Shown one piece after another: positions 6,440 through 29,739 of a stretch of 64,000 nt of DNA. The stretch comes from Somniosus microcephalus (taxonomy: Eukaryota). How positions within the stretch are numbered: position 1 is the stretch's first letter; every line of letters begins with the position of its first letter. The stretch is from assembly GCA_052327205.1 (NCBI GenBank), contig JBMRGM010000036.1, forward strand, positions 79,484,001 to 79,548,000, read 5' to 3'. Under the pieces are notes generated by a model. The model was not told the origin of the DNA. It did no database searches and saw nothing but the letters and a program-made list of their open reading frames with translations. Made by a program: the position numbers and the translations under genes.

Positions 6440-7790
6440 CGGATGGATTCCACCTGCAGAGATTAGAAGAAGTTAGGTAATAGATAGCAGAGGCACTATT
6501 ACATACATATAAAAATTAATTAGAAAAGGGAATAGTGCCAGAGGACTGGCGGACAGCTAACATGATTCCTATATTTAAAAAGGATATAGAATATGTCCAG
6601 GGAACTATAGACCAGTTAGCTTAATATCAGTGGTAGGAAAGAAAATGGAATCTTTACTCAAAGTTGTAAGAGAAAAATATCTAGAAACTGAAAATATAAT
6701 GAAGATTAGTCGGCACGGATTTCAAAAGGGAATGTCATGCCTGACCCACCTTATTCAATTCTTTGAAGAAGTAACAAAAAGAATAGACAAGGGTAATGTA
6801 GTAGATGTAATATATTTGGATTTTCAAAAGGCCTTCGATAAGTTAATGCACAGTAGACTTGTGACTAAGGCCAGAGCATGCGGCGCCTGGGGACAAGTAG
6901 CAGAATGGATAGCAAGCTGGCTACAAAACAGAAAACAGAGAGTAGGGGGTTCAGGGTGGCTACTCAGACTGGCAAAAGGTGGGAAGAGGTGTTCCGCAAG
7001 GATCGGTGCTGGGACCACTGTTCACCATTTCAACTCGAGAATCAGAAGTACAATTTCAAAATTGGCGGAGAACACTAAGTTGTGGGGTATAGTTAATACT
7101 GAGGAAGACTGCGACAGAATACAAGATAACATTAATAAACTTGCAGAATGGGCATGTAATTGGCAAATAAATTTCAATATAAGTGTGAGGTGGTGCATTT
7201 TGGTAGGGAGAATAAGGAGGCCCCATATAAATGGGGTAGAGGAACAAAGGCATCTGGGGATACAGATCACGAAAAGTAATAAGACAGGTTAATGCCATAT
7301 AAAAAGCAAGCAAAGCACTGGGGTTCATTTCTAGAGGGATAGAATTGAAAAGCAGAGAACGTCTGCTAACCCAACCTTTGTTGGACCACACTCGGACACT
7401 GTGAACAGTTCTGGTCTCCATATTATTATAAGGATATAGAGGCACTGGAAAAGGTGCAACAAAGGAGATGTTTCCGCTTGTGGGGGAGACCAGAACTAGG
7501 GGCCGTCAATATAAGATAATCACTGATAAATCCAATCGGGAATTCAGGAGAAACTTCTTTACCCAGAGAGTGGTGAGAATGTGGAACTTGCTACCACAGG
7601 GAGTGGTTGAGGCGAATAGTATCGATGCATTTAAGGGGAAGTTAGAAAGGCACATGAGGGAGGGTTCTGCTGATAGGGTGAGATAAAGTAGGATGGGAGG
7701 AGGCTCGTGTGGAGCATAAACACTGGCATGGACCTGTCGAGCCGAATGGCCTGTTTCAGTGCATGTACTTTTAATGTTGTTCTATGTCGT
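6440..7790 (+). mobile_element. degenerate CR1 RT fragment with 3' UTR, unit copy 3
   Basis: ORF 6630-7292 [16 protein letters not shown]; 3' tail GGCCTGTTTC..TTCTATG. Confidence 0.9.
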
Positions 7791-7949: not shown

Positions 7950-8698
7950 GTACGGCTTCCGGTTATCTAAATATTGCCCATTAAAGACCCCTGGTCCGGA
8001 TGGATTGCACCTGCAGAGATTAGAAGTTAGGTAATAGATAGCAGAGGCACTATTACATATAGATAAAAATTCATTAGAAAAGGGAATAGTGCCAGAGGAC
8101 TGGCGGACAGCATGTAATATAGGAGATACGTCCAGGGAACTATAGACCAGTTAGCTTAACATCGGTGGTAGGAAAGATAATAGAATCCTTACTCAAAGAT
8201 ATAATAGAAAAACATCTAGAAACCGAAAATAAAATGAAGATTAGTCGGCACGGATTTCAAAAGAGAATGCCATGCTTGACCAACCTTATTCAATTCTTTG
8301 AAGAAGTAACAGAAAGAGTAGATAAGGGTAATGTAGTAGATGTAACATATTTGGATTTTCAAAAGGCCTTTGATAATGTACCGCATAGTAGACTAAGGTC
8401 AGAGCATGCGGAGTCAGTGTCGGTAGCAGAATGGATAGCAAGCTGGCTACAAAACAGAGAGTAGGGGTTAACATAAGAACATAAGAAATAGGAGCAGGAG
8501 TAGGCCAATCGGCCCCTCGAGCCTGCTCCGCCATTCAATAAGATCATGGCTGATCTGATCCTAACCGCCAATCCACTATCACAGAACCATCTCCTGAATC
8601 TAACAGAATTAGACACACGAAATAGGAGCAGGATCAGGCTACACGGCCCCTGGGCCCGCTCCGCTACCCACAGGGCCATGACCGATCCGAACCTAGAC

Positions 8699-11600
8699 TC
8701 ATGTCCAAATTCCTGCCCGCTCCCCGTAACCCTTAATTCCCTTTACTTCTAGGAAACTGTCTATTTCTGTTTTAAACTTATGTAATGATGTAGCTTCTAC
8801 AGCTTTTTGGGGCAGCATATTCCATGGACCTACCACCCTCTGAGTGAAGTAGTTCCTCCTCATCTCAGTTTTGAAAGAGCAGCCCCTTATTCTAAGACTA
8901 TGCCCCCTAGTTCTAGTTTCACCCATCATCGGGAACATCCTCCCCGCATCCACCCGATCCGACCCCTTCACAATCTTATATGTTTCAATAAGATCGCCTC
9001 TCATTCTTCTGAACTCCAATGAGTAGAGTCCCAATCTACCCAACCTCTCCTCATATGTCCATCCCCTCATCCCCGGGATTAACCGAGTGAACCTTCTTTG
9101 TACTGACTCGAGAGCAAGTATGTTCAAGAAGGGTAGCAGGGATAAACCAGGGAATTACAGGCCAGTGAGCCTAACATCTGTGGTAGGGAAATTATTGGAA
9201 AAAATTCTGAGGGACAAAATTAGTCTCCACTTGGAGAGGCAAGGATTAATCGGGGATAGTCAGCATGGCTTTGTCAAGGGTAAATCATGTCTGACCAATC
9301 TGATTGAATTTTTCGAGGGGGTGACTAGGTGTGTGGATGAGGGAAATGCTGTGGATGTGGTTTACATGGATTTCAGTAAAGCTTTTGACAAAGTCCCGCA
9401 TAGGAGACTGGTCAAGAAGGTAAGAGCCCATGGGATCCAGGGTGCCTTGGCGCGTTGGATCCTAAACTGGCTGAGTGGCAGGAGGCAGAGGGTGATGGTT
9501 GAAGGTTGCTTTTGTGACTGGAAGCCTGTGTCCAGTGGGGTACCTCAGGGATCGGTGCTGGGACCCTTGCTGTTTGTGATCTACATAAATGATTTGGATG
9601 AGAATGTAAAAGGTATGATCAGTAAGTTCGCAGATGACACGAAAATTGGTGGGGTGGTAAATTGCGAGGAGGAAAGCCTCAGGCTACAGGACGATATAAA
9701 CGGGTTGGTCAGATGGGCGGAAAAGTGGCAAATGGAATTTAACCCTGAAAAGTGCGAGGTGATGCATTTTGGACGGACAAATAAGGCAAGGGAATACACA
9801 ATGAGTGGTAGGACCCTAGGAAGTACAGAGGGTCAGAGGGACCTTGGTGTACATGTACATAGATCCCTGAAGGCAGCGGAACAGGTAGATAAGGTGGTTA
9901 AAAAGGCATATGGGATACTTGCCTTCATTAGCCGAGGCATAGAATATAAGAGCAGGGAGGTTATGATGGAGCTGTACAAAACGCTGGTGAGGCCACAGCT
10001 GGAGTACTGCGTGCAGTTCTGGTCGCCTCACTATAGGAAGGATGTGATTGCTTTGGAGAGGGTGCAGAGAAGATTCACCAGGATGTTACCTGGGATGGAG
10101 CGCCTCAGCTATGAAGAAAGACTAAACAGGCTGGGGTTGTTTTCCTTGGAGCAAAGAAGGCTGAGGGGGGGACCTGATTGAGGTGTACAAAATGATGAGG
10201 GGCATAGATAGGGTAGATAAAGAGGAACTTTTCCCCTTAGTAAGGGGGTCAATAACAAGGGGGCATAGATTAAAGGTAAGGGGCAGGAGGTTTAGAGGGG
10301 ATTTGAGGAGGAACTTTTTCACCCAGAGGGTGGTTGGAATCTGGAACTCACTGCCTGTAAGGGTGGCAGAGGCAGGAACCCTCATAACATTCAAGAAGCA
10401 TTTGGATGAGCACTTGAAATGCCATTGCATACAAGGCTATGGACCAAATGCTGGAAAATGGGATTAGACTGGACAGGGCTTGATGGACGGCGCAGACACG
10501 ATGGGCCGAAGGGCCTCTTTCTGTGCTGTATAACTCTATGACTCTATGTCCTTTCTTAAGTATGGACACCAAAACTGTATGCAGTATTCCAGGTGCGGCC
10601 TCACCAATACCTTGTACAACTGAAGCAATACCTCCCTATTTTTATATTCTATCCCCCTAGCAATGAAAGCCAACATTCCATTGGCCTTCTTAATCACTTG
10701 CTGCACCTGTATACTAACCTTTTGAGTTTCGTGCACCAGGACCCCCAGATCCCTTTGTACTTCAGTACTTTCCAGTTTCTTGCCATTAAGATAATAACTT
10801 GCTCTACGATTTTTCCTGCCAAAGTGCATAACCTCACACTTTCCAGTATTGTATTCCATCTGCCAAATCTCTGCCCACTTACTTAGCCTGTCGATGTCCC
10901 CTTGCAGGTTTTTTATGTCCTCCTCACTCACTACTTTCCCTCCCATCTTAGTATCATCTGCAAACTTTGATATGTTACACTCGGTCCCCTCCTCCAAATC
11001 GTTAATATAGATTGTAAAGAGTTGGGGACCCAGCACCGACCCCTGCGGAACACCACTAGTTACTGATTGCCAGTCTGAGAATGAACCATTTATCCCAACT
11101 CTCTGCCTTCTGTTAGATAGCCAATCCTCTATCCATGCCAGAATATTACCCCCAATCCCATGATTTTTTATCTTAAGCAATAATCTTTTGTGTGGCACCT
11201 TGTCAAATGCCTTTTGGAAGTCTAAATACACTACGTCCACTGGTTCCCCTTTATCCACCCTATATGTTACTTCCTCAAAGAACTCCAGCAAATTTGTCAA
11301 ACATGACTTCCCCTTCATAAAACCATGCTGACTTTGTCCTATTAAATTATGATTATCCAAATGTCCTGTTACTGTCTCCTTAATAATGGACTCCAAAATT
11401 TTACCTACCACAGATGTTAGGCTAACCGGTCCATAGTTTCCAGCCTTCTGTCTACTGCCCTTTTTAAATAAGGGTGTTACATTAGCAGTTTTCCAGTCTG
11501 CCGGGACCTTTGCCGAGTCCAGGGAGTTTTGGAAAATTATTACCAATGCATCCACAATCCCTACCGCCACTTCCCTCAAGACCCTAGGATGTAAGCCATC

Positions 11601-13068
11601 AGGTCCAGGTGATTTATCCGCCTTGAGTCCCATTATTTTACCGAGTACCACTTCCTTAGTGATTTTGATCGTGTTTAGCTCCTCCCCCCCCTTTAGCCCC
11701 CTGTTTGTCCAGTGTTGGGATATTCTTAGTGTCTTCTACTGTAAAGACTGATGTAAAATATTCATTCAGTGTTTTTGCCATCTCCATATTTCCCACCATT
11801 AATTTCCCGGTCTCATCCTCTAAGGGACCAACATTTACTTTAGCCACCCTTTTTCTTTTTATATAACTATAAAAACTCTTACTATCTGTTTTTATATTTT
11901 TTGCTAATTTACTTTCATAATCTATCTTCCCTTTCTTAATCAATCTTTTTGTTATTTTTTGCTGTCTTTTAAAGTTTTCCCAATCTTCTATCCTCCCACT
12001 AGATTTGGCTACCTTATATGCCCTTGTTTTTAGTCGAATACTATCCTTAATTTCTTTACTTAGCCACGGATGGCTGTCTTCTTTTACACCCTTTTCTTCT
12101 CAGTGGAATATATATTTTTTGGAAGTTGTAAAATAACTCCTTGAATGTACACCACTGATCATGTATCGTCTTACCCTTTAATCTATTTTCCCAATCCACT
12201 CTACTCAATTCCGCTCTCATACCTTCATAGTCTCCTTTATTCAAGCTTAGCACGCTTGTTTGAGATCCAACCTTCTCGCCCTCTAATTGAATATGGAATT
12301 CAACCATGTTATGGTCACTCATTCCAAGGGGATCCTTTACTGGGACATTTTTAATTAATCCCGTCTCGTTACACAGGACCAGATCTAAGGTTGCTTGCCC
12401 CCTGGTCGGTTCAGTTACATACTGCTCAAGAAACCCATCCCTAATACACTCAATGAACTCATCCTCAAGGCTGCTCTGCCCAATTTGATTTGTCCAATTA
12501 ATATGATAGTTGAAATCCCCCATAATTATAGATGTTCCCTTATTACAAGCCTCAACTATTTCCTGATTGATACTCCGTCCAACAGAGTTGCCACTGTTCG
12601 GAGGCCTATAGACTACGCCCACTAGTGTTTTTTTCCCCTTATTATTCCTTACCTCCACCCAAACTGTTTCATTATCCTGATCTTTTGACCCAATATCATT
12701 TCTCTGTATTACAGTGATTCCTTCCTTTATTAACATAGCCACCCCACCTCCCCTCCCTTCCTGCCTGTCCTTCCTAAATAACCTGGTATGTTTAATTCCC
12801 AGTCATGGTCACCCTGCAGCCATGTTTCTGTAATGGCCACAAGATCATACCCATATGTAGTTATTTGTGCCATTAACTCATCTATTTTGTTACGAATGCT
12901 ACGTGCATTCAGATAGAGAACTTTCAAAGATGTTTTGTGACACTTAGTTCCTGCTTTTGCCCTTTTTATTACTTTACCTTTTACTCGATACCTTCTGCCC
13001 CTTCCTGACACGCTCTGGTTTTTAATTTCCCCACTGCTACCTAAGTCTATGACCTTCTCTGTTGTCAT
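8699..13068 (-). pseudogene. CR1 'A' ORF2 (APE endonuclease + reverse transcriptase), frameshifted and interrupted
   Basis: YLNARS, ITETW, MGDFN, SDH (APE); PGPDG, QGSVLGP, FADDTK (RT). Confidence 0.92.
9124..10544 (+). mobile_element. 5'-truncated CR1 (different subfamily) nested in element A ORF2
   Basis: 364-aa RT ORF plus frameshifted C-terminus, ACTCTATG-type tail, TATGT duplicated at 9119-9123 and 10545-10549. Confidence 0.95.
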
Positions 13069-13109
13069 TTCTATTATTTGCTCTCTAGGAACCTCCCCCC
13101 CGCCACTAG

Positions 13110-14067
13110 TTAGTTTAAAGCCCTCTCTACAGCCCTAGTTATATGATCCGCCAGGACTCTAGTCCCAGCACTGGCCAAGTGAAGCCCGTCCCAACGGAAC
13201 AGCTCCCTCCTGCCCCAGTACTGGTGCCAGTGTCCCAGGAAGCAAAACCCATTTCTCCCACACCAGTCTTTGAGCCACGCATTTAACTCTCTAATTTTAT
13301 TTGCCCTAGCCAAATTCGCTCGTGGCTCAGGTAATAATCCAGAGATTATTACCCTTGTGGTTCTGCTTTTTAATTTGGCCCCTAGCTGCTCAAACTCCCT
13401 CAGCAGAACCTCCTTCCTTGTCCTATCTATGTCATTGGTACCAACATGGACCACGACAACTGGATCCTCCCCCTCCCACTTCAAGTTTCTCTCCAGTCCA
13501 GAGGAGATGTCCTTAACCCTGGCACCGGGCAGGCAACACAGCCTTCGGGACTCTCGCTCTCGGCTGCAAGGAACTCTATCTATCCCCCTAACGATACTAT
13601 CCCCTACCACTACAACATTTCTTTTAACTCCCCCCCACTTGAATGGCCCCCTGCTCCACGGTGCTGTGGCCAGGTTGCTCATCCTCCCTGCAGTCCCTGC
13701 TCCTGTCCCCACAGGGAGTAAGAGCCTCGAACCTGTTGGACAAGTGCAAGGGCTGCGGCTCCTCCAACACTACCTCCTGGATCCCCGTACCTGCCTCACT
13801 TCTAGTCACACCATCCTGACCCTGGCCACGGACTACATCTGAATTAATTAATCTAATTGGTGTGACTACCTCGTGATACACAGAGTCCAGGTACCTCTCC
13901 CCCTCCCTGATGTGTCTCAGTGTTTGAAGCTCGATCTCCAGCTCTTCAACACGGAGCCAGAGTTCCTCGAGCAGCCAACACTTACTGCAAATGTGATCAC
14001 CGTGAGCATCAATGGTGTTCACCAGCTCCCACATATTGCAGCAGCAACACATCGCCTGATCTCCCAT
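13110..14067 (-). pseudogene. CR1 'A' ORF1: Cys/His zinc-finger-like + leucine zipper + SGNH/GDSL esterase, one frameshift
   Basis: CCCCNMW..HICSKC, heptad Leu, VVVGDSIVRG, HVGTND, DGLHL. Confidence 0.9.
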
Positions 14068-14292
14068 TCTATGTAATTAATTAAATTTATTAATATTATT
14101 CTTAAATATCCTCTGCCCCGATTCTAGATGGTGAATATCACACCTTAGAAACTATAAATCAAAGAGATTTAAGCTTAAAAGGGAGAAATACTCACCAACC
14201 AATCACTTACCCGCTTTCTGGTGACGTCACACTTGGATTACTTTTTACCTCTCTCCTTCCCTCCGAGTTCAGAGACTGGAGACTGGTGAACC

Positions 14293-17200
14293 TACCTGGT
14301 CTCTGGGGACTTTTATACCCCGCTCTGCCGCTGAAACACCCGCCGACGCACTGAGGCCTTACCTGGGTCTCTGGGGCCTTTGATAGCCCCGCTCTGCCGC
14401 TGAAACACCCGCCGACGCTCTGAGACCTTACCTGGTCTCTGGGGACTTTTATACCCCGCTCTGCCGCTGAAACACCCGCCGACGCTGTGAGACCTTACCT
14501 GGTCTCTGGGGACTTTTATACCCCGCTCCGCCGCTCAGGATTCCCGCCGACGCTGTGAGACCTTACCTGGTCTCTGGGGACTTTTATACCCCGCTCTGCC
14601 GCTCAGGATTCCCGCCGACGCTGTGAGACCTTACCTGGTCTCTGGGGACTTTTATACCCCGCTCTGCCGCTCAGGATTCCCGCCGACGCACTGAGGCCTT
14701 ACCTGGTCTCTGGGACTTTTATACCCCGCTCTGCCGCTCAGGTTTCCCGCCGACGCTGTGAGGCCTTACCTGGTCTCTGGGGACTTTTATACCCCGCTCT
14801 GCCGCTCAGGATTCCCGCCGACGCTGTGAGGCCTTACCTGGTCTCTGGGGACTTTTATAGCCCCGCTCTGCCGCTCAGGATTCCCGCCGACGTTGTGAGG
14901 CCTTACCTGGTCTCTGGGGCCTTTTATACCCCGCTCTGCCGCTCAGGATTCCCGCCGACGCTGTGAGACCTTACCTGGTCTCTGGGACTTTTATACCCCG
15001 CTCTGCCGCTCAGGATTCCTGCCGACGCTGTGAGACCTTACCTGGTCTCTGGGGACTTTTATACCCCGCTCTGCCGCTCAGGATTCCCGCCGACGCACTG
15101 AGGCCTTACCTGGTCTCTGGGGACTTTTATACCCCGCTCTGCCGCTCAGGTTTCCCGCCGACGCACTGAGGCCTTACCTGGTCTCTCGGGACTTTTATAC
15201 CCCGCTCCGCCGCTCAGGTTTCCCGCCGACGCTGTGAGGCCTTACCTGGTCTCTGGGGACTTTAATACCCCGCTCTGCCGCTCAGGTTTCCCGCCGACGC
15301 TGTGAGGCCTTACCTGGTCTCTGGGGACTTTTATACCCCGCTCTGCCGCTCAGGATTCCCGCCGACGCTGTGAGGCCTTACCTGGTCTCTGGGGACTTTT
15401 ATACCCCGCTCTGCCGCTCAGGATTCCCACCGACACTGTGAGACCTTACCTGGTCTCTGGGACTTTTATACCCCGCTCTGCCGCTCAGGATTCCCACCGA
15501 CACTGTGAGGCCTTACCTGGTCTCTGGGACTTTTATACCCCGCTCCGCCGCTCAGGTTTCCCGCCGACGCTATGAGGCATTACCTGGTCTCTGGGACTTT
15601 TATACCCCGCTCCGCCGCTCAGGTTTCCCGCCGACACTGAGACCTTACCTGGTCTCTGGGGACTTTTATACCCCGCTCTGCCGCTCAGGATTCCCACCGA
15701 CACTGTGAGGCCTTACCTGGTCTCTGGGGACTTTTATACCCCGCTCTGCCGCTCAGGATTCCCACCGACACTGAGACCTTACCTGGTCTCTGGGGACTTT
15801 TATACCCCGCTCTGCCGCTCAGGATTCCCGCCGACGCTATGAGGCATTACCTGGTCTCTGGGACTTTTATACCCCGCTCCGCCGCTCAGGTTTCCCGCCG
15901 ATGCACTGAGACCTTACCTGGTCTCTGGGGACTTTTATACCCCGCTCTGCCGCTCAGGATTCCCGCCGACGCTGTGAGACCTTACCTGGTCTCTGGGGAC
16001 TTTTATACCCCGCTCTGCCGCTCAGGATTCCCGCCGACGCTGTGAGACCTTACCTGGTCTCTGGGGACTTCTATACCCCGCTCCGCCGCTCAGGTTTCCC
16101 GCCGACGCACTGAGGCCTTACCTGGTCTCTGGGACTTTTATACCCCGCTCTGCCGCTCAGGATTCCCGCCGACGCACTGAGGCCTTACCTGGTCTCTCGG
16201 GACTTTTATACCCCGCTCCGCCGCTCAGGTTTCCCGCCGACGCTGTGAGGCCTTACCTGGTCTCTGGGGACTTTTATACCCCGCTCTGCCGCTCAGGTTT
16301 CCCGCCGACGCTGTGAGGCCTTACCTGGTCTCTGGGGACTTTTATACCCCGCTCTGCCGCTCAGGATTCCCGCCGACGCTGTGAGGCCTTACCTGGTCTC
16401 TGGGGACTTTTATACCCCGCTCTGCCGCTCAGGATTCCCACCGACACTGTGAGACCTTACCTGGTCTCTGGGGACTTTTATACCCCGCTCTGCCGCTCAG
16501 GATTCCCACCGACACTGTGAGACCTTACCTGGTCTCTGGGGACTTTTATACCCCGCTCTGCCGCTCAGGATTCCCGCCGACGCTATGAGGCATTACCTGG
16601 TCTCTGGGACTTTTATACCCCGCTCCGCCGCTCAGGTTTCCCGCCGACGCACTGAGGCCTTACCTGGTCTCTGGGGACTTTTATACCCCGCTCCGCCGCT
16701 CAGGTTTCCCGCCGATGCACTGAGACCACCTTACCTGGTCTCTGGGGACTTTTATACCACGCTCTGCCGCTCAGGTTTCCCGCCGACGCTGTGAGACCTT
16801 ACCTGGTCTCTGGGGACTTTTATACCCCGCTCTGCCGCTCAGGTTTCCCGCCGACGCTGTGAGGCCTTACCTGGTCTCTGGGGACTTTTATACCCCGCTC
16901 TGCCGCTCAGGTTTCCCGCCGACGCTATGAGGCATTACCTGGTCTCTGGGACTTTTATACCACGCTCTGCCGCTCAGGTTTCCCGCCGACGCACTGAGGC
17001 CTTACCTGGTCTCTGGGGACTTTTATACCCCGCTCTGCCGCTCAGGATTCCCGCCGATGCACTGAGGCCTTACCTGGTCTCTGGGACTTTTATACCCCGC
17101 TCCGCCGCTCAGGATTCCCGCCGACGCTGTGAGACCTTACCTGGTCTCTGGGGACTTTTATACCCCGCTCTGCCGCTCAGGTTTCCCGCCGACGCTGTGA

Positions 17201-17611
17201 GGCCTTACCTGGTCTCTGGGGACTTTTATACCCCGCTCCGCCGCTCAGGTTTCCCGCCGACGCTGTGAGGTCTTACCTGGTCTCTGGGGACTTTTATAGC
17301 CCCGCTCTGCCGCTCAGGATTCCCGCCGACGCTGTGAGGTCTTACCTGGTCTCTGGGGACTTTTATACCCCGCTCCGCCGCTCAGGTTTCCCGCCGACGC
17401 TGTGAGGTCTTACCTGGTCTCTGGGGACTTTTATACCCCGCTCTGCCGCTCAGGTTTCCCGCCGACGCTGTGAGGTCTTACCTGGTCTCTGGGGACTTTT
17501 ATACCCCGCTCTGCCGCTCAGGATTCCCGCCGACGCTGTGAGACCTTACCTGGTCTCTGGGGACTTTTATACCCCGCTCTGCCGCTCAGGTTTCCCGTCG
17601 ACGCACTGAGG
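14293..17611 (-). repeat. 68-bp tandem array (~49 copies) forming the 5' UTR of CR1 'A'; each unit has TATAAAA, CAG|GTAAGG and TCAGT/TCACA
   Basis: Minus-strand unit TATAAAAGTCCCCAGAGACCAGGTAAGGCCTCAGTGCGTCGGCGGGAATCCTGAGCGGCAGAGCGGGG; period 68 measured at 14581/14649. Confidence 0.97.
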
Positions 17612-18124
17612 ACAGTTACTCAGATTGGCAAAAGGTGGGAAGCAGTGTTCCACAAGGATCGGTGCTGGGACCACAGCTGTTCACTATTTACATAAACGAT
17701 TTGGACTCTGAAATCGGCAGTACAATTTCAAAATTTGCAGATGACACCAAATTAGTTAACACTGAGGAGGTCTGTGACAAAATGCAAGACAATATTATTA
17801 AACTTGCAGAATGGGCGTGCAATAGGCAAATGAACGTCACTATAGATAATGTGAGCTGGTACATTTTGGTAGAGGGAATAAGGAGGCCACCTACTGTTTG
17901 GAAAATAAGAGTCTAAATGGGGTCGAGGAGCAGAGGGCTCTGGGGTACAGATTCACAAATCACTAAAAGTAACGATGCAGGTTAATAAAGCCATAAAAAA
18001 AAAAAACAAGCACTGGGGTTCATTTCTAAAGGGATAGAATTGAAAAGTAGTGAAGTTATGTTAAACTTGTATTGAACCTTGGTTAGACCACACTTGGAGC
18101 ACTGCACAGTTCTGGTCTCCATAT

Positions 18125-21091
18125 ACCCGCTCCCCGTAACCCTTAATTCCCTTTACTTCTAGGAAACTATCTATTTCTGTTTTAAATTTATTTAATGATG
18201 TAGCTTCCACAGCTTTCTGGGGCAGCAAATTCCACAAACCTACCACCCTCTGAGTGAAGAAGTTTCTCCTCATCTCAGTTTTGAAAGAGCAGCCCCTTAT
18301 TTTAAGATTATGCCCCCTAGTTCTAGTTTCACCCATCATTGGGAACATCCTCACCGCATCCACCCGATCCAACCCCTTCACAATCTTATATGTTTCAATA
18401 AGATCGCCTCTCATTCTTCTGAACTCCAATGAGTAGAGTCCCAATCTACTCAACCTCTCCTCATATGACCACCCCCTCATCCCCGGGATTAACCGAGTGA
18501 ACCTTCTTTGTACTGACTCGAGAGCAAGTATGTCTTTTCTTAAGTATGGACACCAAAACTGTATGCAGTATTCCAGGTGCGGTCTCACCAATACCTTGTA
18601 TAACTGCAGCAATACCTCCTTGTTTTTATATTCTATCCCCCTAGCAATGAAAGCCAACATTCCATTGGCCTTCTTGATCACTTGCTGCACCTGCATACTA
18701 ACTTTTTGAGTTTCGTGCACCAGGACCCCCAGATCCCTTTGTACTACAGTACTTTCCAGTTTCTTGCCATTAAGATAATAACTTGCTCTATGATTTTTCC
18801 TGCCAAAGTGCATAACCTCACACTTTCCAGTATTGTATTCCATCTGCCAAATTTCTGCCCACTTACTTAGCCTGTCTATGTCACTTTGTAGGTTTTTTAT
18901 GTCCTCCTCACTCACTACTTTCCCTCCCATCTTTGTATCATCTGCAAACTTTGATATGTTACACTTGGTCCCCTCCTCCAAATCGCTAATATAGATTGTA
19001 AAGAGTTGGGGACCCAGCACTGACCCCTGCGGAACACCACTAGTTACTGATTGCCAGTCTGAGAATGAACCATTTATCCCAACTCTCTGCTTTCTGTTAG
19101 AGAGCCAATTCTCCACCCACGCCAGAATATTACCCCCAATCCTGTGATTTTTTTATCTTGAGCAATAATCTTTTGTGTGGCACCTTGTCAAATGCCTTTT
19201 GGAAGTCTAAATACACTACGTCCACTGGTTCTCCTTTATCCACCCTGTATGTTACTTCCTCAAAGAACTCAAGCAAATTTGTCAAACATGACTTCCCCTT
19301 CATGAAACCATGCTGAGTTTGTCCTATTAAATTATGTTTATCCAAATGTCCCGTTACTGTCTCCTTAATAATGGACTCTAACATTTTACCAACCACAGAT
19401 GTTAGGCTAACAGGTCTATAGTTACCAGCCTTCTGCCTACTACCCTTTTTAAATAAGGGTGTTACATTAGCAGTTTTCCAATCTGCTGGGACCTTTGCTG
19501 AGTCCAGGGAGTTTTGGAAAATTATTACCAATGCATCCACAATCCCTACCGCCACTTCCCTCAGGACCCTAGGATGTAAGCCATCAGGTCCAGGGGATTT
19601 ATCCGGCTTAATTCCCATTATTTTACCAAGTACCACTTCCTTAGTGATTTTAATCGTATTTAGCTCCTCTCCCCCTAGAGCCCCCTGTTTGTCCAGTGTT
19701 GGGATATTCTTAGTGTCCTCTACCGTAAAGACTGATACAAAATATTTGTTCAGCATTTTTGCCATCTCCATGTTTCCCACCATTAATTTCCCAGTCTCAT
19801 CCTCTAAGGGACCAACATTTACTTTAGCCACCCTTTTTCTTTTAATATAACTATAGAAACTTTTGCTATCCGTTTTTATATTTTTTGCTAATTTACTTTC
19901 ATAATCTATCTTCCCTTTCTTAATCAATCTTTTAGTTATTTTTTGCTGTCTTTTAAAGTTTTCCCAATCTTCTATCCTCCCACTAGATTTGGCTACCTTA
20001 TATGCCCTTGTTTTTAGTCGGATACTATCCTTAATTACTTTACTTAGCCACGGATGGCTATCTTTTCTTTTACACCCTTTTTTCCTCAGTGGAATATATA
20101 TTTTTTGGAAGTTGTAAAATAACTCCTTAAATGTACACCACTGATCATGTACCGTCTTACTCTTTAATCTATTTTCCCAGTCCACTCTAATCAATTCCGC
20201 TCTCATACCTTCATAGTCTCCTTTATTCAAGCCGCTTGTTTGAGATCCAACCTTCTCGCCCTCTACTTGAATATGGAATTCAACCATGTTATGGTCACTC
20301 ATTCCAAGGGCATCCTTTACTAGGACATTTTTAATTAATCCTGTCTCATTACACAGGACCAAATCTAACGTTGCTTGCCCCCTGGTCGGTTCAGTTACAT
20401 ACTACTCAAGAAACCCATCCCTAATACACTCAATGAACTCATCCTCAAGGCTGCTCTGCCCAATTTGATTTGTCCAGTTAATATGATAGTTAAAATCCCC
20501 CATAATTATAGCTGTTCCCTTATTACAAGCCTCAACTATTTCCTGATTAATACTCCGTCCAACAGAGTTGCAACTGTTCGGAGGCCTATAGACTACGCCC
20601 ACTAGTGTTTTTTTCCCCTTATTATTCCTTATCTCTACCCAAACTGTTTCACTATCCTGCTCCTTTGACCCAATATCATTTCTCTGTATTATAGTGATTC
20701 CTTCCTTTATTAACATAGCCACCCCACCTCCCCTTCCTTCCTGCCTGTCCTTCCTGATTGTTAAATAACCTGGTATGTTTAATTCCCAGTCATGGTCACC
20801 CTGCAGCCATGTTTCTGTAATGGCCACAAGATCATACCCATATGTAGTTATTTGTGCCGTTAACTCATTCATTTTGTTACGAATGCTACGTGCATTCAGA
20901 TAAAGAACTTTCAAATATGTTTTGTGACACTTAGTTCCTGTTTTTTCCCCTTTTACTACTTTACCTTTTACTCCATACCTTCTGTCCCTTCCTGACACGT
21001 TCTGTTTTTTAATTTCCCCACTGCTACCTAAGTCTATGACCTTCTCCGTTGTCATTTCTGTTATTTGCTCTCTAGGAACCTCCCCCCCCAC
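18125..21091 (-). pseudogene. CR1 'B' ORF2 (APE + RT), one stop (~20402) and one frameshift (~19140)
   Basis: ORF-track pieces 20402-21091, 19130-20362, 18061-19116 with APE and RT motifs. Confidence 0.92.
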
Positions 21092-21094
21092 TAA

Positions 21095-22045
21095 TTAGTT
21101 TAAAGCCCTCTCTACAGCCCTAGTTATATGATTTGCCAGGACTCTAGTCCCAGCACTGGCCAAGTGGAGTCCGTCCCAACGGAACAGCTCCCTCCTGTCC
21201 CAGTACTGGTGCCAGTGTCCCAAGAAGCAAAACCCATTTCTCCCACACCAGTCTTTGAGCCACGCATTTAACTCTTTAATTTTATTTATCCTAGCCAAAT
21301 TCGCTCGTGGCTCAGGTAATAATCCAGAGATTATTACCCTTGAGGTTCTGTTTTTTAATTTGACCCCTAGCTGCTCATACTCCTTTAACAGAACCTTCTT
21401 CCTTGTCCTATCTACGTCGTTTGTACCAACATGGACCACGACAACTGGATCCTCCCCCTCCAAGTTTCTTTCCAGCCCAGAAGAGATATCCTTAACCCTG
21501 GCACCGGGCAGGCAACACAGCCTTCGGGACTCCCGCTCTTGACTGCAGAGAACCCTATCTATCCCCCTAATGATACTATCCCCTACCACTACAACATTTC
21601 TTTTTACTCCCTCCACTTGAATGGCCCCCTGTACCACGGTGCTGTGGCCAGGTTGCTCATCCTCCCTGCAGTCCCCGCTCCTGCCCTCACAGGGAGTAAG
21701 AACCTCAATCCTGCTTGACAAGAGCAAGGGCTGCGGCTCCTTCAACACTACATCCTGGATCCCTGTACCTTCCTCACTCGTAGTCACACCGTCCTGTCCC
21801 TGACCACGGACTACATCTGCAGTAATTAATTTCATATGTGTGACCACCTCCTGAAACATAGAGTCCAGGAACTTCTCCCCCTCCCTGATGTGTCGCAGTG
21901 TCTGAAGCTCGGTCTCAAGCTCTTTAACATGGAGCTTGAGTTCCTCTAGCAGCAAACACTTATCGCAAATGTAATCACCGTGAGCCTCAATGGGGTCCAC
22001 CAGCTCCCACATTTCGCAACAGTGACACATCACCTGTTCACCCAT
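21095..22045 (-). CDS. CR1 'B' ORF1p, intact 316 aa: zinc-finger-like/leucine zipper + SGNH esterase
   Basis: CHCCEMW..YICDKC, LEELKLHVKELETEL, GDSIIRG, GTND, DGLH. Confidence 0.92.
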   Translation of the reverse strand: MGEQVMCHCCEMWELVDPIEAHGDYICDKCLLLEELKLHVKELETELQTLRHIREGEKFLDSMFQEVVTHMKLITADVVRGQGQDGVTTSEEGTGIQDVVLKEPQPLLLSSRIEVLTPCEGRSGDCREDEQPGHSTVVQGAIQVEGVKRNVVVVGDSIIRGIDRVLCSQERESRRLCCLPGARVKDISSGLERNLEGEDPVVVVHVGTNDVDRTRKKVLLKEYEQLGVKLKNRTSRVIISGLLPEPRANLARINKIKELNAWLKDWCGRNGFCFLGHWHQYWDRRELFRWDGLHLASAGTRVLANHITRAVERALN

Positions 22046-22339
22046 ATCTGTGTAATTAATTAAATTTCTTATTATTAGTTATGAAGACCCTCTGCCCCGA
22101 TATAGATGATAATATTACACCAGTATTTAATAGGACTTACCGAATTAAAGGTATAGAAGAGAAGGAAGAGAACCTACCAACCAGCTGATCACCAACCTCC
22201 CTCGTGGAAGCTGTCTGGGGGACCTGTCCGGTTGAATTGTCTCACTGCTCCACGTCTGCAGTGTTGGATTAGCCTGAGAGAGGGAAGCAAAACAGAGCAA
22301 CAAGCACCCCCTCACCTCCCACTTGCCCGAACTCTGCCA

Positions 22340-22430
22340 CTTACCAAACTCTACTTACACTCAATGCGACCGCACTCAGCGCTACCGCACTAAGCCCGCC
22401 CCTATTTATACCCGGATTCTACTTCCGGTT
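22340..22430 (-). promoter_or_regulatory. internal core promoter of CR1 'B': ETS site, TATA box, GC box, splice donor
   Basis: Minus strand CCGGAAGT..GGGTATAAATAGGGGCGGG (TATA starts 22410) and TTG|GTAAGT at 22344. Confidence 0.6.
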
Positions 22431-22885
22431 TCAACTCCCCAACAGCTTAATTTACTCTTTTTAAAAAAAATTAAACTTACTTCAAATAATTCACTTTTTT
22501 ACTCACTAAAATTCAGTAAATGCACTTAAAAGACTTTTTCTGCCACTTACCAAAGTCTGCTTAAACTCAATGCGATTGCACTTGGAGCACTGTGCACAGT
22601 TCTGGTCTCCATATTATAAGGATATAGAGGCACTGGAGAAGGTGCAAAAAAGATTTACAAGGATGATACCAGAACTGCGAGGTTATAACTATCAGGAAAG
22701 ATTGAACAGAGAAGAGAAGGCTGAGGGGTGACCTGATTGAGGTCTGCAGAATTATGAAAGGTTTGATAGAGTAGGCACAGAGAAGATGTTTCAACTTGTG
22801 AGGGAGACCAGAACTAGGGGCCATCAATATAAGATAATCACTAATAAATCCAATAGGGAATTCAGGAGAAACTTCTTTACCCAGA

Positions 22886-24284: not shown

Positions 24285-24460
24285 GTTTTGGAGCGTTTTG
24301 GAGCCTTTCGGTGCGCTTTTGAGTTTTGGAGTGTTTTGTAGTGTCTGTTTAGAAGCAAGTGTTTGGGGGTGTTTGGGAGTGACTGTTTAGGAGCGAGTGT
24401 TTAGGAGTGTTTGGGAGTATTTGGGAGTGACAGTTTAGAAGCGGGTGTTTTGGAGTGTTC
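24285..24460 (+). repeat. degenerate GTGTTT(G/A)GGA simple repeat
   Basis: Visible ~10-14-bp periodicity. Confidence 0.7.
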
Positions 24461-24572: not shown

Positions 24573-24890
24573 GTAGGGTTATCTAAATATTGGCCATGTT
24601 TTTCAGGCAAGTCGTTGGACAGCTGTTGGCTGACGGACTGAGGTCGCGTTGACGGTGTGCAATCCCAGAATGCATCTGCGGGGCTGTGATGTCACGGGTA
24701 CTGAGCTGCGGAGGTCTCCGTCACGCGCACGGGCTCTGTGGTGCCTCCCCGCTTTCTGTAAAATGGGGGAGGGAGGGGGGTCCCTCGAGGACTGTGTGGG
24801 CGGGGGTGGTGGGGGTCCCCTCACAGACTGTGACTGTTGTGCCCCTAGCTTCTACCCCCCCCGACTCACCGGCCGTGTGCTCTCTTACAG

Positions 24891-24971
24891 CTTCGCACGA
24901 AGCGTCAAACAGCCAGGCTTTCTCCAGCTGGATGGCGGGCCTGCCGGATTCCAGCACGCCAGAGAGCACAG
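24891..24971 (+). CDS. internal exon of unidentified + strand gene ((A)SHEASNSQAFSSWMAGLPDSSTPEST)
   Basis: Branch-like GACTCAC, TCTCTTACAG acceptor, CAG|GTAACT donor, 81 nt phase 1-1, open. Confidence 0.6.
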
Positions 24972-25361
24972 GTAACTCACCCGGCAGCAACCCCCCCCCC
25001 CCCCCCCCGCAAACAGGTGGCAGAACCCTGCACGGGCTGAGGGCGGTCCCCAAAAACACTTTGAAAACTTCCCGCACTCGCGGGAAACTGTCCAGAAACT
25101 CCCGGCGGAAAGCGAAGGGCGAGTGGGGGGGCGGGGTGCTCGGCTGTGATACGATGCCCCTCGTGGTCAAAGAGCCTCTTGGGCGGGGGGGTGATGGGGG
25201 AGAGAGAGAGAAGTGGAAGCCTAAGTTTTGGAGTTGTGGGGGGGAGGGGGAAAAAGAGGGATTAACGCCTTACACAACGTGGACCTGAGCAGCGGCAGCA
25301 GCTTAGAGGGAGCTGAGCGGCGACTTAAAAAAAAATAAGGAGTGACGTCCTGGGACAGCAG

Positions 25362-28300
25362 AAGGCAGAGTATAAATCGAGCGGGAGCCCCAGAGAGAGC
25401 GCAGACTGGAGCAGCGAGGAGGCAGAGTATAAATCGAGCGGCAGCCCCAGAGAGAGCGCAGACTGGAGCAGCAAGGAGGCAGAGTATAAATCGAGCGGGA
25501 GGCCCAGAGAGAGCGTGAACTGGAGCAGCGAGGAGGCAGAGTATAAATCGAGCGGGAGGCCCAGAGAGAGTGCGGACTGGAGCAGCGAGAAGGCAGAGTA
25601 TAAATCGAGCGGGAGGCCCAGAGAGAGCGTGGACCGGAGCAGCGAGGAGGCAGAGTATAAATCGAGCGGGAGGCCCAGAGAGAGTGCGGACTGGAGCAGC
25701 GAGGAGGCAGAGTATAAATCGAGCGGGAGGCCCAGAGAGAGCGTGGACTGGAGCAGCGAGGAGGCAGAGTATAAATCGAGCGGGAGGCCCAGAGAGAGTG
25801 CGGACTGGAGCAGCGAGGAGGCAGAGTATAAATCGAGCGGGAGGCCCAGAGAGAGCGTGAACTGGAGCAGCGAGGAGGCAGAGTATAAATCGAGCGGCAG
25901 CCCCAGAGAGAGCGCAGACTGGAGCAGCAAGGAGGCAGAGTATAAATCGAGCGGGAGGCCCAGAGAGAGCGTGAACTGGAGCAGCGAGGAGGCAGAGTAT
26001 AAATCGAGCGGGAGGCCCAGAGAGAGTGCGGACTGGAGCAGCGAGGAGGCAGAGTATAAATCGAGCGGGAGGCCCAGAGAGAGCGTGGACCGGAGCAGCG
26101 AGGAGGCAGAGTATAAATCGAGCGGGAGGCCCAGAGAGAGTGCGGACTGGAGCAGCGAGGAGGCAGAGTATAAATCGAGCGGGAGGCCCAGAGAGAGCGT
26201 GAACTGGAGCAGCGAGGAGGCAGAGTATAAATCGAGCGGGAGGCCCAGAGAGAGTGCGGACTGGAGCAGCGAGGAGGCAGAGTATAAATCGAGCGGGAGG
26301 CCCAGAGAGAGCGTGGACTGGAGCAGCGAGGAGGCAGAGTATGAATCGAGCGGGAGGCCCAGAGAGAGTGCGGACTGGAGCAGCGAGGAGGCAGAGTATA
26401 AATCGAGCGGGAGGCCCAGAGAGAGCGTGAACTGGAGCAGCGAGGAGGCAGAGTATAAATCGAGCGGGAGGCCCAGAGAGAGTGCGGACTGGAGCAGCGA
26501 GGAGGCAGAGTATAAATCGAGCGGGAGGCCCAGAGAGAGCGCGGACCGGAGCAGCGAGGAGGCAGAGTATAAATCGAGCGGGAGGCCCCAGAGAGAGTGC
26601 GGACTGGAGCAGCGAGGAGGCAGAGTATAAATCGAGCGGGAGCCCCAGAGAGAGTGTGGACTGGAGCAGCGAGGAGGCAGAGTATAAATCGAGCGGGAGG
26701 CCCAGAGAGAGCGCGGACTGGAACAGCGAGGAGGCAGAGTATAAATCGATCGGGAGGCCCCAGAGAGAGCGTGGACTGGAGCAGCGAGGAGGCAGAGTAT
26801 AAATCGAGCGGGAGGCCCAGAGAGAGCGTGGACTGGAGCAGCGAGGAGGCAGAGTATAAATCGAGCGGGAGGCCCAGAGAGAGCGTGGACTGGAGCAGCG
26901 AGGAGGCAGAGTATAAATCGAGCGGGAGGCCCAGAGAGAGCGTGGACTGGAGCAGCGAGGAGGCAGAGTATAAATCGATCGGGAGGTCCAGAGAGAGCGT
27001 GGACTGGAGCAGCGAGGAGGCAGAGTATAAATCGATCGGGAGGCCCAGAGAGAGCGTGGACTGGAGCAGCGAGGAGGCAGAGTATAAATCTAGCGGGAGG
27101 CCCAGAGAGAGCGCGGACTGGAGCAGCGAGGAGGCAGAGTATAAATCGAGCGGGAGGCCCAGAGAGAGCGTGGACTGGAGCAGCGAGGAGGCAGAGTATA
27201 AATCGATCGGGAGGCCCAGAGAGAGCGTGGACTGGAGCAGCGAGGAGGCAGAGTATAAATCGAGCGGGAGGCCCAGAGAGAGCGCGGGCTGGAGCAGCGA
27301 GGAGGCAGAGTATAAATCGAGCGGGAGGCCCAGAGAGAGCGTGGACTGGAGCAGCGAGGAGGCAGAGTATAAATCGAGCGGGAGGCCCAGAGAGAGCGTG
27401 GACTGGAGCAGCGAGGAGGCAGAGTATAAATCGAGCGGGAGGCCCAGAGAGAGCGTGGACTGGAGCAGCGAGGAGGCAGAGTATAAATCGAGCGGGAGGC
27501 CCAGAGAGAGCGTGGACTGGAGCAGCGAGGAGGCAGAGTATAAATCGATCGGGAGGCCCAGAGAGAGCGTGGACTGGAGCAGCGAGGAGGCAGAGTATAA
27601 ATCGAGCGGGAGGCCCAGAGAGAGCGCGGACTGGAGCAGCGAGGAGGCAGAGTATAAATCGAGCGGGAGGCCCAGAGAGAGCGTGGACCGGAGCAGCGAG
27701 GAGGCAGAGTATAAATCGAGCGGGAGGCCCAGAGAGAGCACAGATCGAAGCAGCGAGGAGGCAGAGTATAAATCGAGCGGGAGGCCCAGAGAGAGCGCAG
27801 ACTGGAGCAGCGGCGGCAGCGAGGAGGCAGAGTATAAATCGAGCGGGAGGCCCAGAGAGAGCGTGGACTGGAGCAGCGAGGAGGCAGAGTATAAATCGAG
27901 CGGGAGGCCCAGAGAGAGCGTGGACTGGAGCAGCGAGGAGGCAGAGTATAAATCGAGCGGGAGGCCCAGAGAGCGCGTGGACTGGAGCAGCGAGGAGGCA
28001 GAGTATAAATCTAGCGGGAGGCCCAGAGAGAGCGTGGACTGGAGCAGCGAGGAGGCAGAGTATAAATCGAGCGGGAGGCCCAGAGAGCGCGTGGACTGGA
28101 GCAGCGAGGAGGCAGAGTATAAATCTAGCGGGAGGCCCAGAGAGAGCGTGGACTGGAGCAGCGAGGAGGCAGAGTATAAATCGAGCAGGAGGCCCAGAGA
28201 GAGTGTGGACTGGAGCAGCGAGGAGGCAGAGTATAAATCGAGCGGGAGCCCCAGAGAGAGTGCAGACTGGAGCAGCGGCGGCAGCGAGGAGGCAGAGTAT

Positions 28301-28715
28301 AAATCGAGCGGGAGGCCCAGAGAGAGCGTGGACTGGAGCAGCGAGGAGGCAGAGTATAAATCGAGCGGGAGGCCCAGAGAGAGCGCGGACTGGAGCAGCG
28401 AGGAGGCAGAGTATAAATCGAACGGGAGGCCCCAGAGAGAGCGCAGACTGGAGCAGCGAGGAGGCAGAGTATAAATCGAACGAGAGGCCCAGAGAGAGCG
28501 TGGACTGGAGCAGCAAGGAGGCAGAGTATAAATCGAACGAGAGGCCCAGAGAGAGCACAGATCGAAGCAGCGAGGAGGCAGAGTATAAATCGAGCGGGAG
28601 CCCCAGAGAGAGTGCAGACTGGAGCAGCGGTGGCAGCGAGGAGGCAGAGTATAAATCGAGCGGGAGGCCCCAGAGAGAGCGCAGACTGGAGCAGCGGCGG
28701 CAGCGAGGAGGCGGA
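25362..28715 (+). repeat. 57-bp tandem array (~59 copies) forming the 5' UTR of CR1 'C'; each unit has TATAAAT
   Basis: Unit GGCAGAGTATAAATCGAGCGGGAGGCCCAGAGAGAGCGTGGACTGGAGCAGCGAGGA; 19-aa periodicity in the ORF track. Confidence 0.97.
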
Positions 28716-28838
28716 GTACCTCCAGCGAAAACCACAAAAACAACTGCAAAACAACTAAAGTGACGTCACAACCAGGGAAGGAGCTGATGGGTGAGTAGCT
28801 GGTAAGTGTTTCTAATTAATAGTCTATTAAGTAAAGGC

Positions 28839-29739
28839 ATGGCAGGGCAGCTCAGTCCCGTGGAATGCACATCCTGTGTCATGTGGGAACTCCAGGACGC
28901 TTCCCGTGTCCTGGACAACCACATGTGCAGGAAGTCTCGTCAGCGGGAGGAGCTCGAGCTCCAGGTTTTGGAGCTTGAGCAGCAGCTGGCGTCACTGCGG
29001 TGCATCCGTGAGGCTGAGAGCTACGTGGATAGCACGATTCAGGAGGTGGTCACCCCACAGATAGTGTGTGCAGGCAGAGAAGGGGATGGGTGACCACCAG
29101 ACAGGAGAGGAGGACCAGGCAGGTAGTGCAGGAGTCCCCCGAGTGCATCTCGCTCTCCAACCAGTATTCGGTTCTGAGTACTGGTGAGGGCGATGGTTCA
29201 TCTGGGGAGTACAGCCAGAGCCAAGTCTGCGGCACCATGGGTGGCTCAGCTGTACGGGGTAGGAAGAAGAGTGGGAAAGCAATAGTGGTAGGGGAGCAGA
29301 CAGGCGTGACTGCAGGATGGTATGCTGCCTCCCTGGTGCCAGGGTCAAGGATGTCACTGACCATTCTGAGGCGGGAAGGTGAATGAAAGCCAGAGGTCGT
29401 GGTCCATATTGGTACCAACGACATAGATAGAAAGAGGGATGAGGACCTGCAGGCAGATTTCAGGGAGCTAGGAAAGAGATTAAAAAGCAGGACCTCAAAG
29501 GTAGTAATCTCCGGATTACCCCCGGTGCCACGCGCTGATGAGTATAGAAATAGGAGGATCGAGCAGATGAATGCGTGGCTGGATGGTGCAGGAGGGAAGG
29601 CTTTAGATTCCTGGAGCATTGGGACCGCTTCTGGGGGAGGTGGGACCTGTACAGGCCGGACGGGTTGCACCTCAACAGGGCCGGAACCAATGTCCTCGCG
29701 GGGAGGTTTGCTAGTGCTGTTGGGGAGGGTTGAAACTAA
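28839..29739 (+). pseudogene. CR1 'C' ORF1 (zinc-finger-like/leucine zipper + esterase), disrupted
   Basis: ECTSCVMWE..HMCRK, LELQVLELEQQL, VHIGTNDI, VVISGL. Confidence 0.85.

Follow-up and report, generated by a model that had tools for sequence, protein, structure and literature searches.

The stretch of Somniosus microcephalus DNA analyzed here (contig JBMRGM010000036.1, positions 79,484,001 to 79,548,000 of the forward strand; 64,000 nucleotides, hereafter the window) is densely filled with nested fragments from LINEs (long interspersed nuclear elements) of the CR1 type. Three of them, elements A, B, and C, carry 5' untranslated regions (UTRs) in which promoter sequences stand beside strong 5' splice sites (donors), and the possible function of these donors is the subject of this report. 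By domain content, A, B, and C are classified as CR1-group LINEs (Table 1). The product of open reading frame 1 (ORF1) of B matched PF13472 (E 2.9e-10), a profile of 13 of its relatives matched the LINE ORF1 esterase structure PDB 4c1b (E 2.4e-39), and its best named relatives were from Hemitrygon (76%), Scyliorhinus (61%), and Callorhinchus (49%). Pieces of ORF2 matched PF03372, PF00078, and, below the cut-off, PF14529, representing APE endonuclease and reverse transcriptase (RT) families, and the ORF2 RT reached 54 to 56% against metagenome loci L003, L005, and L007. No relative was found among viral contigs, and bacterial genomes gave weak matches only. All three copies are inactive, with ORF2 of A further split by a nested plus-strand CR1 at about 9121 to 10545, ORF2 of B spread over three frames, and several lesions in C. 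The 3' end of A consists of a folded hairpin and a degenerate short-repeat tail, with no poly(A).

Promoter repeats and donor sites in the leaders

Each monomer of the A array contains a GC box-like GCGGGG and a TATAAAA, then a CAG/GTA donor (the slash marks the exon-intron boundary), and then a CTCA start-like motif. The donor sits 22 or 23 nt from the T of TATA, and the first C of CTCA lies 30 nt from that T in 36 of 47 units, 29 nt in 10, and 31 nt in 1. This TATA-donor spacing gave 39 matches against 0.02 expected, in a comparison where the tandem copies are not independent. A preliminary description of this DNA had placed CAG/GTAAGG in every monomer; the CAG/GTA core is indeed invariant across all 49, and the remainder of the word varies (GTAAGG in 40, GTAAGA in 4, GTAATG in 4, and GTAGGT in 1). 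The same description correctly read GTAAGT at 14210 and GTGAGT at 14195 between the array and ORF1 of A, as well as GTGAGT at 28791, GTAAGT at 28802, and a weak, close AAG/GC ATG (28836/28839) in C. The TTG/GTAAGT sites that it assigned to two monomer copies in B are present at 22550 and 22344, but they belong to a 44-nt direct repeat with copies 206 bp apart (22582 to 22539 and 22376 to 22333) and not to monomers; one B donor falls about 35 nt past the start predicted from TATAAATA at 22410. No donor-like GT occurs in the 57-bp monomer of C.

A TATA box is expected to set the transcription start about 30 nt downstream. The 5' end of A lies in register with the start predicted in this way, and the chance of its falling in such a 3- to 5-nt window of 68 is 5 to 7%. 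Element A was inserted in an older plus-strand CR1, with a 2-nt microhomology at the 5' junction. The copied RNA would have started at the head of a monomer and passed over its donors without being spliced, or else the array grew after insertion; the register, together with the 49 donors copied unspliced, agrees with the earlier proposal that unspliced RNA carries the array into new copies. Each monomer donor lies 8 to 10 nt upstream of the predicted start of its own unit, within the core promoter, and would thus be present only in transcripts that start at an upstream monomer, where it would lie 58 nt from the 5' end. The leader of about 58 nt proposed earlier holds when counted from the A of the TCA in the start-like motif to the next donor. 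The A and C arrays are built from unrelated monomers and reach a similar total length of about 3.3 kb, and the A array contains repeated blocks with common CpG-type changes, that is, duplication after mutation.

Outside the arrays, donor-like motifs in the unique leaders exceeded the dinucleotide-shuffle expectation in A (2 versus 0.28), B (7 versus 0.85), and C (2 versus 0.21), with none on the antisense strand of any of the three leaders; the search pattern was picked after inspection of the sequence. Sites matching at least 8 of 9 positions of the U1 complement numbered 10 in 100,394 strand-bases outside the arrays, the donors at 14210 and 28802 among them. The A monomer donors and that at 14210 score 8 to 8.5 of 9 against U1, with a duplex of -11 to -12 kcal/mol. 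At one site homologous between the two elements, A has GTGAGT and B has GTAGGT, each of them donor-like.

Conservation beyond the window was examined by aligning four public contig sets (X1, the largest, X8, X15, and X17; 4 of 24 runs) to positions 12800 to 14440 at 85% likeness. A C>T change at 14212 (G>A on the element strand) turns donor 14210 into CAG/GTAAGT, the exact U1 complement, and among the 40 of 363 variant rows listed, where depth does not stand for copy number, it accounted for 77% of the depth in X1 (1.86 of 2.41 million units), 99.7% in X8 (6577 of 6597), and 100% in X15 (723 of 723) and X17 (931.5 of 931.5). The bin from 14175 to 14229, which holds the TGACGTCA cAMP response element (CRE) and two donors, was a depth peak in all four sets. 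Contigs of X15 and X17, whose RNA status is a guess, depart from this bin into other sequence, and the module therefore seems common to several families. In X8, very sharp depth peaks (about 100,000 versus 600) resemble a reduced-representation DNA library, and its low cover at 14120 to 14174 was left out of consideration. X15 and X17, from two organisms, each also contain a high-depth contig that carries the CRE-donor module to 14144 and continues into an identical foreign 30 letters, belonging to another family.

Table 1. Features of elements A, B, and C (positions in the window; ORF, open reading frame)
Feature	Positions	Strand	Description
A ORF2	8606..13068	-	APE endonuclease and RT, broken; followed by 3' UTR hairpin and tail
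A ORF1	13110..14067	-	contains Cys motifs, a coiled-coil-like segment, and an SGNH esterase; frameshift near 13640
A weak candidate acceptor	14069..14110	-	AT-rich, ends TTACATAG/A ATG; AG 14070-14069, ATG 14067
A better-scoring candidate acceptors	14152..14175	-	14152 (11/16 pyrimidines) and 14174 (12/16), both above the pre-ATG site
A module	14175..14229	-	TGACGTCA palindrome 14222-14229, then donors 14210 (CGG/GTAAGT) and 14195 (TTG/GTGAGT)
A promoter array	14293..17611	-	49.0 x 68-bp monomers
A 5' end	17609..17611	-	monomer position 29-31 from TATA T; breakpoint versus intact copy at 6925-7000
B ORF1	21095..22045	-	intact, 316 aa
B second candidate intron	22048..22177	-	donors 22177 or 22140 (130 or 93 nt), acceptor TTACACAG/AT ATG
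B candidate 71-nt intron	22274..22344	-	TTG/GTAAGT to TTTTGCTTCCCTCTCTCAG/G
B promoter	22333..22582	-	leader and donor repeat, AT-rich spacer, CCGGAAGT 22428-22421, TATAAATA 22410-22403
C promoter array	25356..28718	+	58 x 57-bp monomers with TATAAA
C module	28761..28841	+	TGACGTCA, donors 28791 (GTGAGT) and 28802 (GTAAGT), AG 28836, ATG 28839

Candidate introns and possible translation of the unspliced leader

The preliminary description paired these donors with acceptors directly before ORF1 and regarded the spliced RNA, in which a monomer leader is joined to ORF1, as the translated message. Both candidate sites are present (the B site follows an ACTAAT and has its AG at 22049-22048), but neither is strong: each has pyrimidines at 8 of 16 positions and ranks at the median among 3237 YAG sites of the background. 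In A, the A of the TTACATAG AG doubles as the purine at position -3 relative to the ORF1 start codon. Because A and B are 93% identical through this region (10545 to 14144 versus 18529 to 22121, reaching from ORF2 to 14144/22121), the AG before their ATG was inherited once and counts as one observation, and its conservation in the two elements was not accepted as independent support. The description had overlooked the A acceptors at 14152 and 14174, the B donors at 22177 and 22140, and a B acceptor at 22274 with 14 of 16 pyrimidines, which falls in the top 1.4% of background YAG sites; these ranks come from crude splice-site scoring and not from a trained splice model. No YTRAY branch motif was found within 50 nt of acceptor 22274, and its tract is predicted to be paired; a branch-like CTAAT (in ACTAAT) lies 27 nt before 22048. 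For B, a three-exon arrangement is plausible on sequence grounds (22344 to 22274, then 22177 or 22140 to 22048). The usual vertebrate intron minimum is about 65 to 70 nt, and the candidate introns of A (127 to 294 nt or more) and B (71 to 297 nt) exceed it, whereas those of C, with 46 or 35 nt from donor to AG, fall below. A hairpin predicted at 14125 to 14198 of A (minus strand) pairs donor 14195 with ATATTCACC (z -2.8, in a window chosen post hoc). B lacks one base in each arm and does not fold it (z 0.2), and the stability of the leader as a whole is not out of the ordinary (z -1.6); hiding of the donor by such a hairpin was therefore rejected as evidence.

The composition of the leaders points to translation without splicing. 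In the nonredundant leaders of A and B, ATG was the most depleted of the 64 trinucleotides, with 0 observed versus 7.5 expected (0 of 2000 shuffles), followed by TAG (9 versus 18). The long introns of the earlier model likewise contain no ATG versus 4.7 expected (17 of 5000 shuffles). ATG-free background windows numbered 93 of 1854 at 227 nt and 3 of 1720 at 527 nt, and five CR1 3' segments have 2 to 5 ATGs each, near or above expectation; the 121-nt leader of C has one. Since ATGs in an intron that is always removed before translation would be neutral, ATG-free long introns suggest that the leader is translated unspliced. The unspliced leader RNA thus looks built for translation, and ORF1 would not need splicing, the leader being free of upstream ATGs in both of these counts.

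Direct traces of splicing were sought in the contig sets and in the window. Among the 15 of 42 contig joints listed for the four sets, no GT-AG joint (that is, no CT..AC ends) was present, and none linked a donor to 14069, 14152, or 14174; no spliced DNA form was seen among the joints listed for X1. An X17 joint of 14052 to 14177 was ruled out as a splice, as it ends in CG..TT and retains the donors. In the same set, one contig (depth 42) crosses the acceptor and reaches 14097, and bases downstream of both donors are retained in another; both are unspliced forms. The RNA side of this test is weak: the aligned stretch includes the last two monomers of A, junction contigs fitting two monomers may have dropped out, it covers the leader of A and not that of B, the monomer (14285 to 14440) has no cover in X15 and X17, which says nothing on expression, no confirmed RNA run covered it, and 24 of 1066 loose ends were listed. 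None of the runs holding the stretch well was on record as RNA; one run recorded as RNA-Seq had a share of 0.07 and was left out of the alignment. The proposed search for spliced copies was carried out within the window, where eight candidate junctions, at up to 2 mismatches, gave no match, and the copies present retain their candidate introns. Splicing is unproven, not refuted.

Several neighboring features deserve mention. At 8473 to 8620 (minus strand), the 3' tail of A gives way to a spacer of about 50 nt and then to another CR1 3' tail, this one bearing TTCTTATG repeats; that the older CR1 runs on without a break across this whole block suggests either 3' transduction or a short insertion nested there. 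B lies between near-identical copies of about 36 nt of the older plus-strand CR1 (18090 to 18126 and 22579 to 22615), and it lacks its 3' tail and ends early in the 3' UTR, as would fit a target duplication of unusual length or an insertion primed internally. Before the C array, a GC-rich unique stretch (24660 to 25355, plus strand) ends in a second TGACGTC preceded by an A-run, resembles the unique part after that array, and holds CAG/GTAACT (24972, plus) and CGG/GTGAGT (24980, minus); it may represent a further CR1 leader or else a promoter of the host. At 24285 to 24459, short tandem repeats skewed to G/T (GTGTTTGGGA-like) form one end of an element. A fourth ORF1-bearing CR1 (62077 to 64000, minus strand, about 72% to A and B) has its 5' UTR beyond the end of the window. 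Finally, a 549-aa ORF at 58402 to 60051 (minus strand) combines part of a CR1 RT with a Penelope-like RT, the latter carrying what looks by eye like a GIY-YIG motif at its C-terminal end (LLYIGET), and is read as a Penelope-type element inserted in a CR1.

What the donors may do

We propose, as a reading with about an even chance of being correct, that the donors serve mainly as U1 landing sites on a leader that is translated unspliced, with minor splicing. The CR1 5' UTRs would then be swappable units built like the 5' end of a host gene. RNA polymerase II would be started at the beginning of one unit by the TATA box lying at the 3' end of the unit before it, and the RNA would in this way retain a promoter for the copies made from it. 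Strong donors, predicted to lie within the first 35 to 150 nt of the RNA, may recruit the U1 small nuclear ribonucleoprotein near the start and support elongation and expression, and weak acceptors would leave most of the RNA unspliced. This ATG-free, unspliced RNA would be both translated and reverse-transcribed, and occasional splicing, of which the 71-nt candidate of B is likeliest, would yield promoter-less dead-end copies. The persistence of donors in C despite only 35 to 46 nt to the AG favors this proposal, as do the TATA-donor spacing, the register of the A 5' end, the enriched sense-strand donors, the majority form at 14210, the median pre-ATG acceptors, the depletion of ATG, and the unspliced X17 contigs; of the earlier suggestions, the remark that U1 sites near a promoter may stimulate transcription fits best. 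In mammalian systems, a sense 5' splice site is reported to shield transcripts from Restrictor even without splicing (PMC12211998), intron-mediated enhancement is described as scaling with the strength of the 5' and not of the 3' splice site (bioRxiv 10.64898/2026.09.28.754465), and the conserved L1 donor is reportedly seldom used (PMC5860796).

Several observations weigh on the other side. The donors and acceptors of B are properly ordered and include a high-ranking acceptor, an arrangement that resembles real splicing. Depth falls just upstream of ORF1 in X15 (112 to 19) and X17 (96 to 27), with no such drop in X1 (807k to 819k); this is a weak hint of splicing that leader divergence in other species explains equally well. 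Under a short-intron model, ATG depletion (0 versus 1.46; 893 of 5000 shuffles) is not significant and has no power. CR1 elements can also do without donors: the distant leaders L001 to L003, the only 3 of 34 metagenome loci with an identifiable ORF1 start plus upstream DNA, have 0, 1 moderate, and 0 donors, respectively, and no AG beside the ATG. The L003 leader (positions 1 to 290) is of the bird type, with a direct repeat of about 75 nt whose copies lie about 215 nt apart and a TTTAAA after the first copy, a layout like that of B but without strong donors. Furthermore, a transcript from far up the C array would have no donor nearby, the C monomers being donor-free. Lastly, protection from HUSH is reported not to depend on the 5' splice site (PMC8770142); evasion of HUSH as a role for the donors is not supported, because the 5' splice site was not what protected in those tests.

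A retrovirus- or Penelope-like division of labor, in which partly used 5'-UTR introns give a short spliced leader as the main translated message and the proteins mobilize unspliced RNA in trans via the common 3' tail, is in our judgment unlikely. It would account for the strength of the donors (the majority form at 14210 being a perfect CAG/GTAAGT), the exon-intron order of B with its 71-nt and 93- or 130-nt candidate introns and CTAAT motif, the depth dips in X15 and X17, and the depletion of TAG alongside ATG, and splicing would benefit a 3.3-kb GC-rich leader with 4 upstream ATGs. Penelope and Chlamys-3 are reported to keep a 5'-UTR intron (PMC8557442), and recognition of the 3' tail by CR1-type LINEs makes such a split possible in principle (PMC3747384). 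Set against this are the median pre-ATG acceptors, the ATG-free long introns, the lack of room in C, and the failure to find GT-AG joints or a spliced DNA form among the joints listed, and the earlier claim that the spliced RNA is the translated message is not supported by these results. Moreover, no signal restricting copying to unspliced RNA was identified, and spliced RNA would bear the same 3' tail, with nothing obvious to bar dead-end copying, as for the spliced L1 copies known as SpIREs (PMC5860796). A spliced A copy would keep one TATA, start just inside ORF1, and lose the TATA in the next round. Quite improbable, in our estimation, is a gene-like multi-exon CR1 leader of cartilaginous fish, in which splicing would be balanced so that a short spliced RNA makes most of the protein and unspliced RNA is preferentially copied, a retrovirus-like split without packaging in an APE-type LINE. 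Such a leader would combine TATA monomers with the shared CAG/GTAAGT module and genuine introns of short length, and the unspliced RNA would carry as much as 3 kb of promoter repeats.

The donor-like words could instead be kept as promoter DNA motifs, with splicing incidental, an explanation that we also doubt. The monomer donors do lie in the core promoter, the donors at 14210 and 28791/28802 adjoin TGACGTCA, and CAGGTA resembles an E-box-like ZEB site; a precedent is the L1 donor located within a RUNX3 site (PMC5860796). Yet the words vary (CAGGTAAGG, GGTAAGT, GGTGAGT, and GGTAGGT) and all of them fit U1 and lie on the sense strand, the homologous site of A and B differs while remaining donor-like in both, and in the majority form the match to the U1 complement is exact. 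That the motifs arose by chance and were then multiplied through tandem amplification is very improbable. The 49 monomers do count as one event, A and B have a common ancestry, the pattern was recognized post hoc, and three elements were examined; however, enrichment outside the arrays was found separately in A, B, and C with no antisense counterpart, and the module recurs in many contigs of four sets.

To our knowledge, LINEs are taken as intronless, and splicing is regarded as a cost to human L1. If U1 landing is indeed the main role of the donors, then by maintaining perfect 5' splice sites beside TATA promoters across differing 5' UTRs, a LINE lineage would be borrowing a host first-exon signal in order to be transcribed well, offering a simple case of U1-dependent expression in a mobile element. 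Such 5' ends, at large copy number, could also serve host genes as portable promoter-plus-first-exon units. Should the division of labor prove true instead, it would represent a new route for LINE gene expression.

Comparison with known systems

Mouse L1 carries tandem 5' monomers that regenerate the promoter in each round; these are about 200 bp long, few in number, not known to be TATA-driven, and belong to a different clade. In the CR1/L2 group, zebrafish ZfL2-1 and ZfL2-2, which have an esterase ORF1, are reported to contain functional splice sites (Tamura et al., 2007). With the vertebrate CR1 elements that have an esterase ORF1 (shark HER1, turtle, and chicken CR1), A, B, and C have in common the SGNH ORF1, the APE and RT domains of ORF2, variable 5' UTRs, and, as seen in A, a 3' hairpin with a short-repeat tail. 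They differ in the TATA-monomer arrays of 49 to 58 units in A and C, and the leaders of L001 to L003 lack strong donors. The CR1 5' UTRs of turtle and pufferfish are described as containing direct repeats (PMC2734521), and variable or repeated 5' UTRs and promoter replacement in CR1 are already known (PMC2734521, PMC2881922). Our literature search, with most subscription literature and Repbase/Dfam outside its range, found no description of CR1 TATA-monomer arrays (49 to 58 units) with a strong-donor module, although Repbase/Dfam entries on shark CR1 families may already record such repeats, and a search for retrotransposon use of a promoter-proximal 5' splice site found none among the 6 papers listed.

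Human L1 likewise has a conserved donor near the LINE 5' end and several possible acceptors, and its spliced copies, the SpIREs, lose the promoter (Larson et al., 2018, PMC5860796). According to the same report, L1 differs in that its one donor lies within a RUNX3 site and its single 5' UTR is nonrepeated, and about 2% of full-length L1s are spliced copies (PMC5860796); none was seen in the limited view available here. Penelope and Chlamys-3, the closest parallel in operation for the model of the preliminary description, are described as having a short 5'-UTR intron that overlaps the promoter and is kept in transposed copies (PMC8557442). Penelope-like elements are distinguished by a GIY-YIG endonuclease and pseudo-LTRs (long terminal repeats), and their introns are reported as experimentally shown (PMC8557442), whereas those described here are candidates from sequence. 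Promoter-proximal 5' splice-site and U1 effects share with our leaders a strong sense donor near the start and tolerance of a weak acceptor; they have been shown for mammalian genes and reporters and not for LINEs or cartilaginous fish. By analogy, the leaders of these shark elements may work like L1 monomer promoters combined with a Penelope-like 5'-UTR intron or donor.

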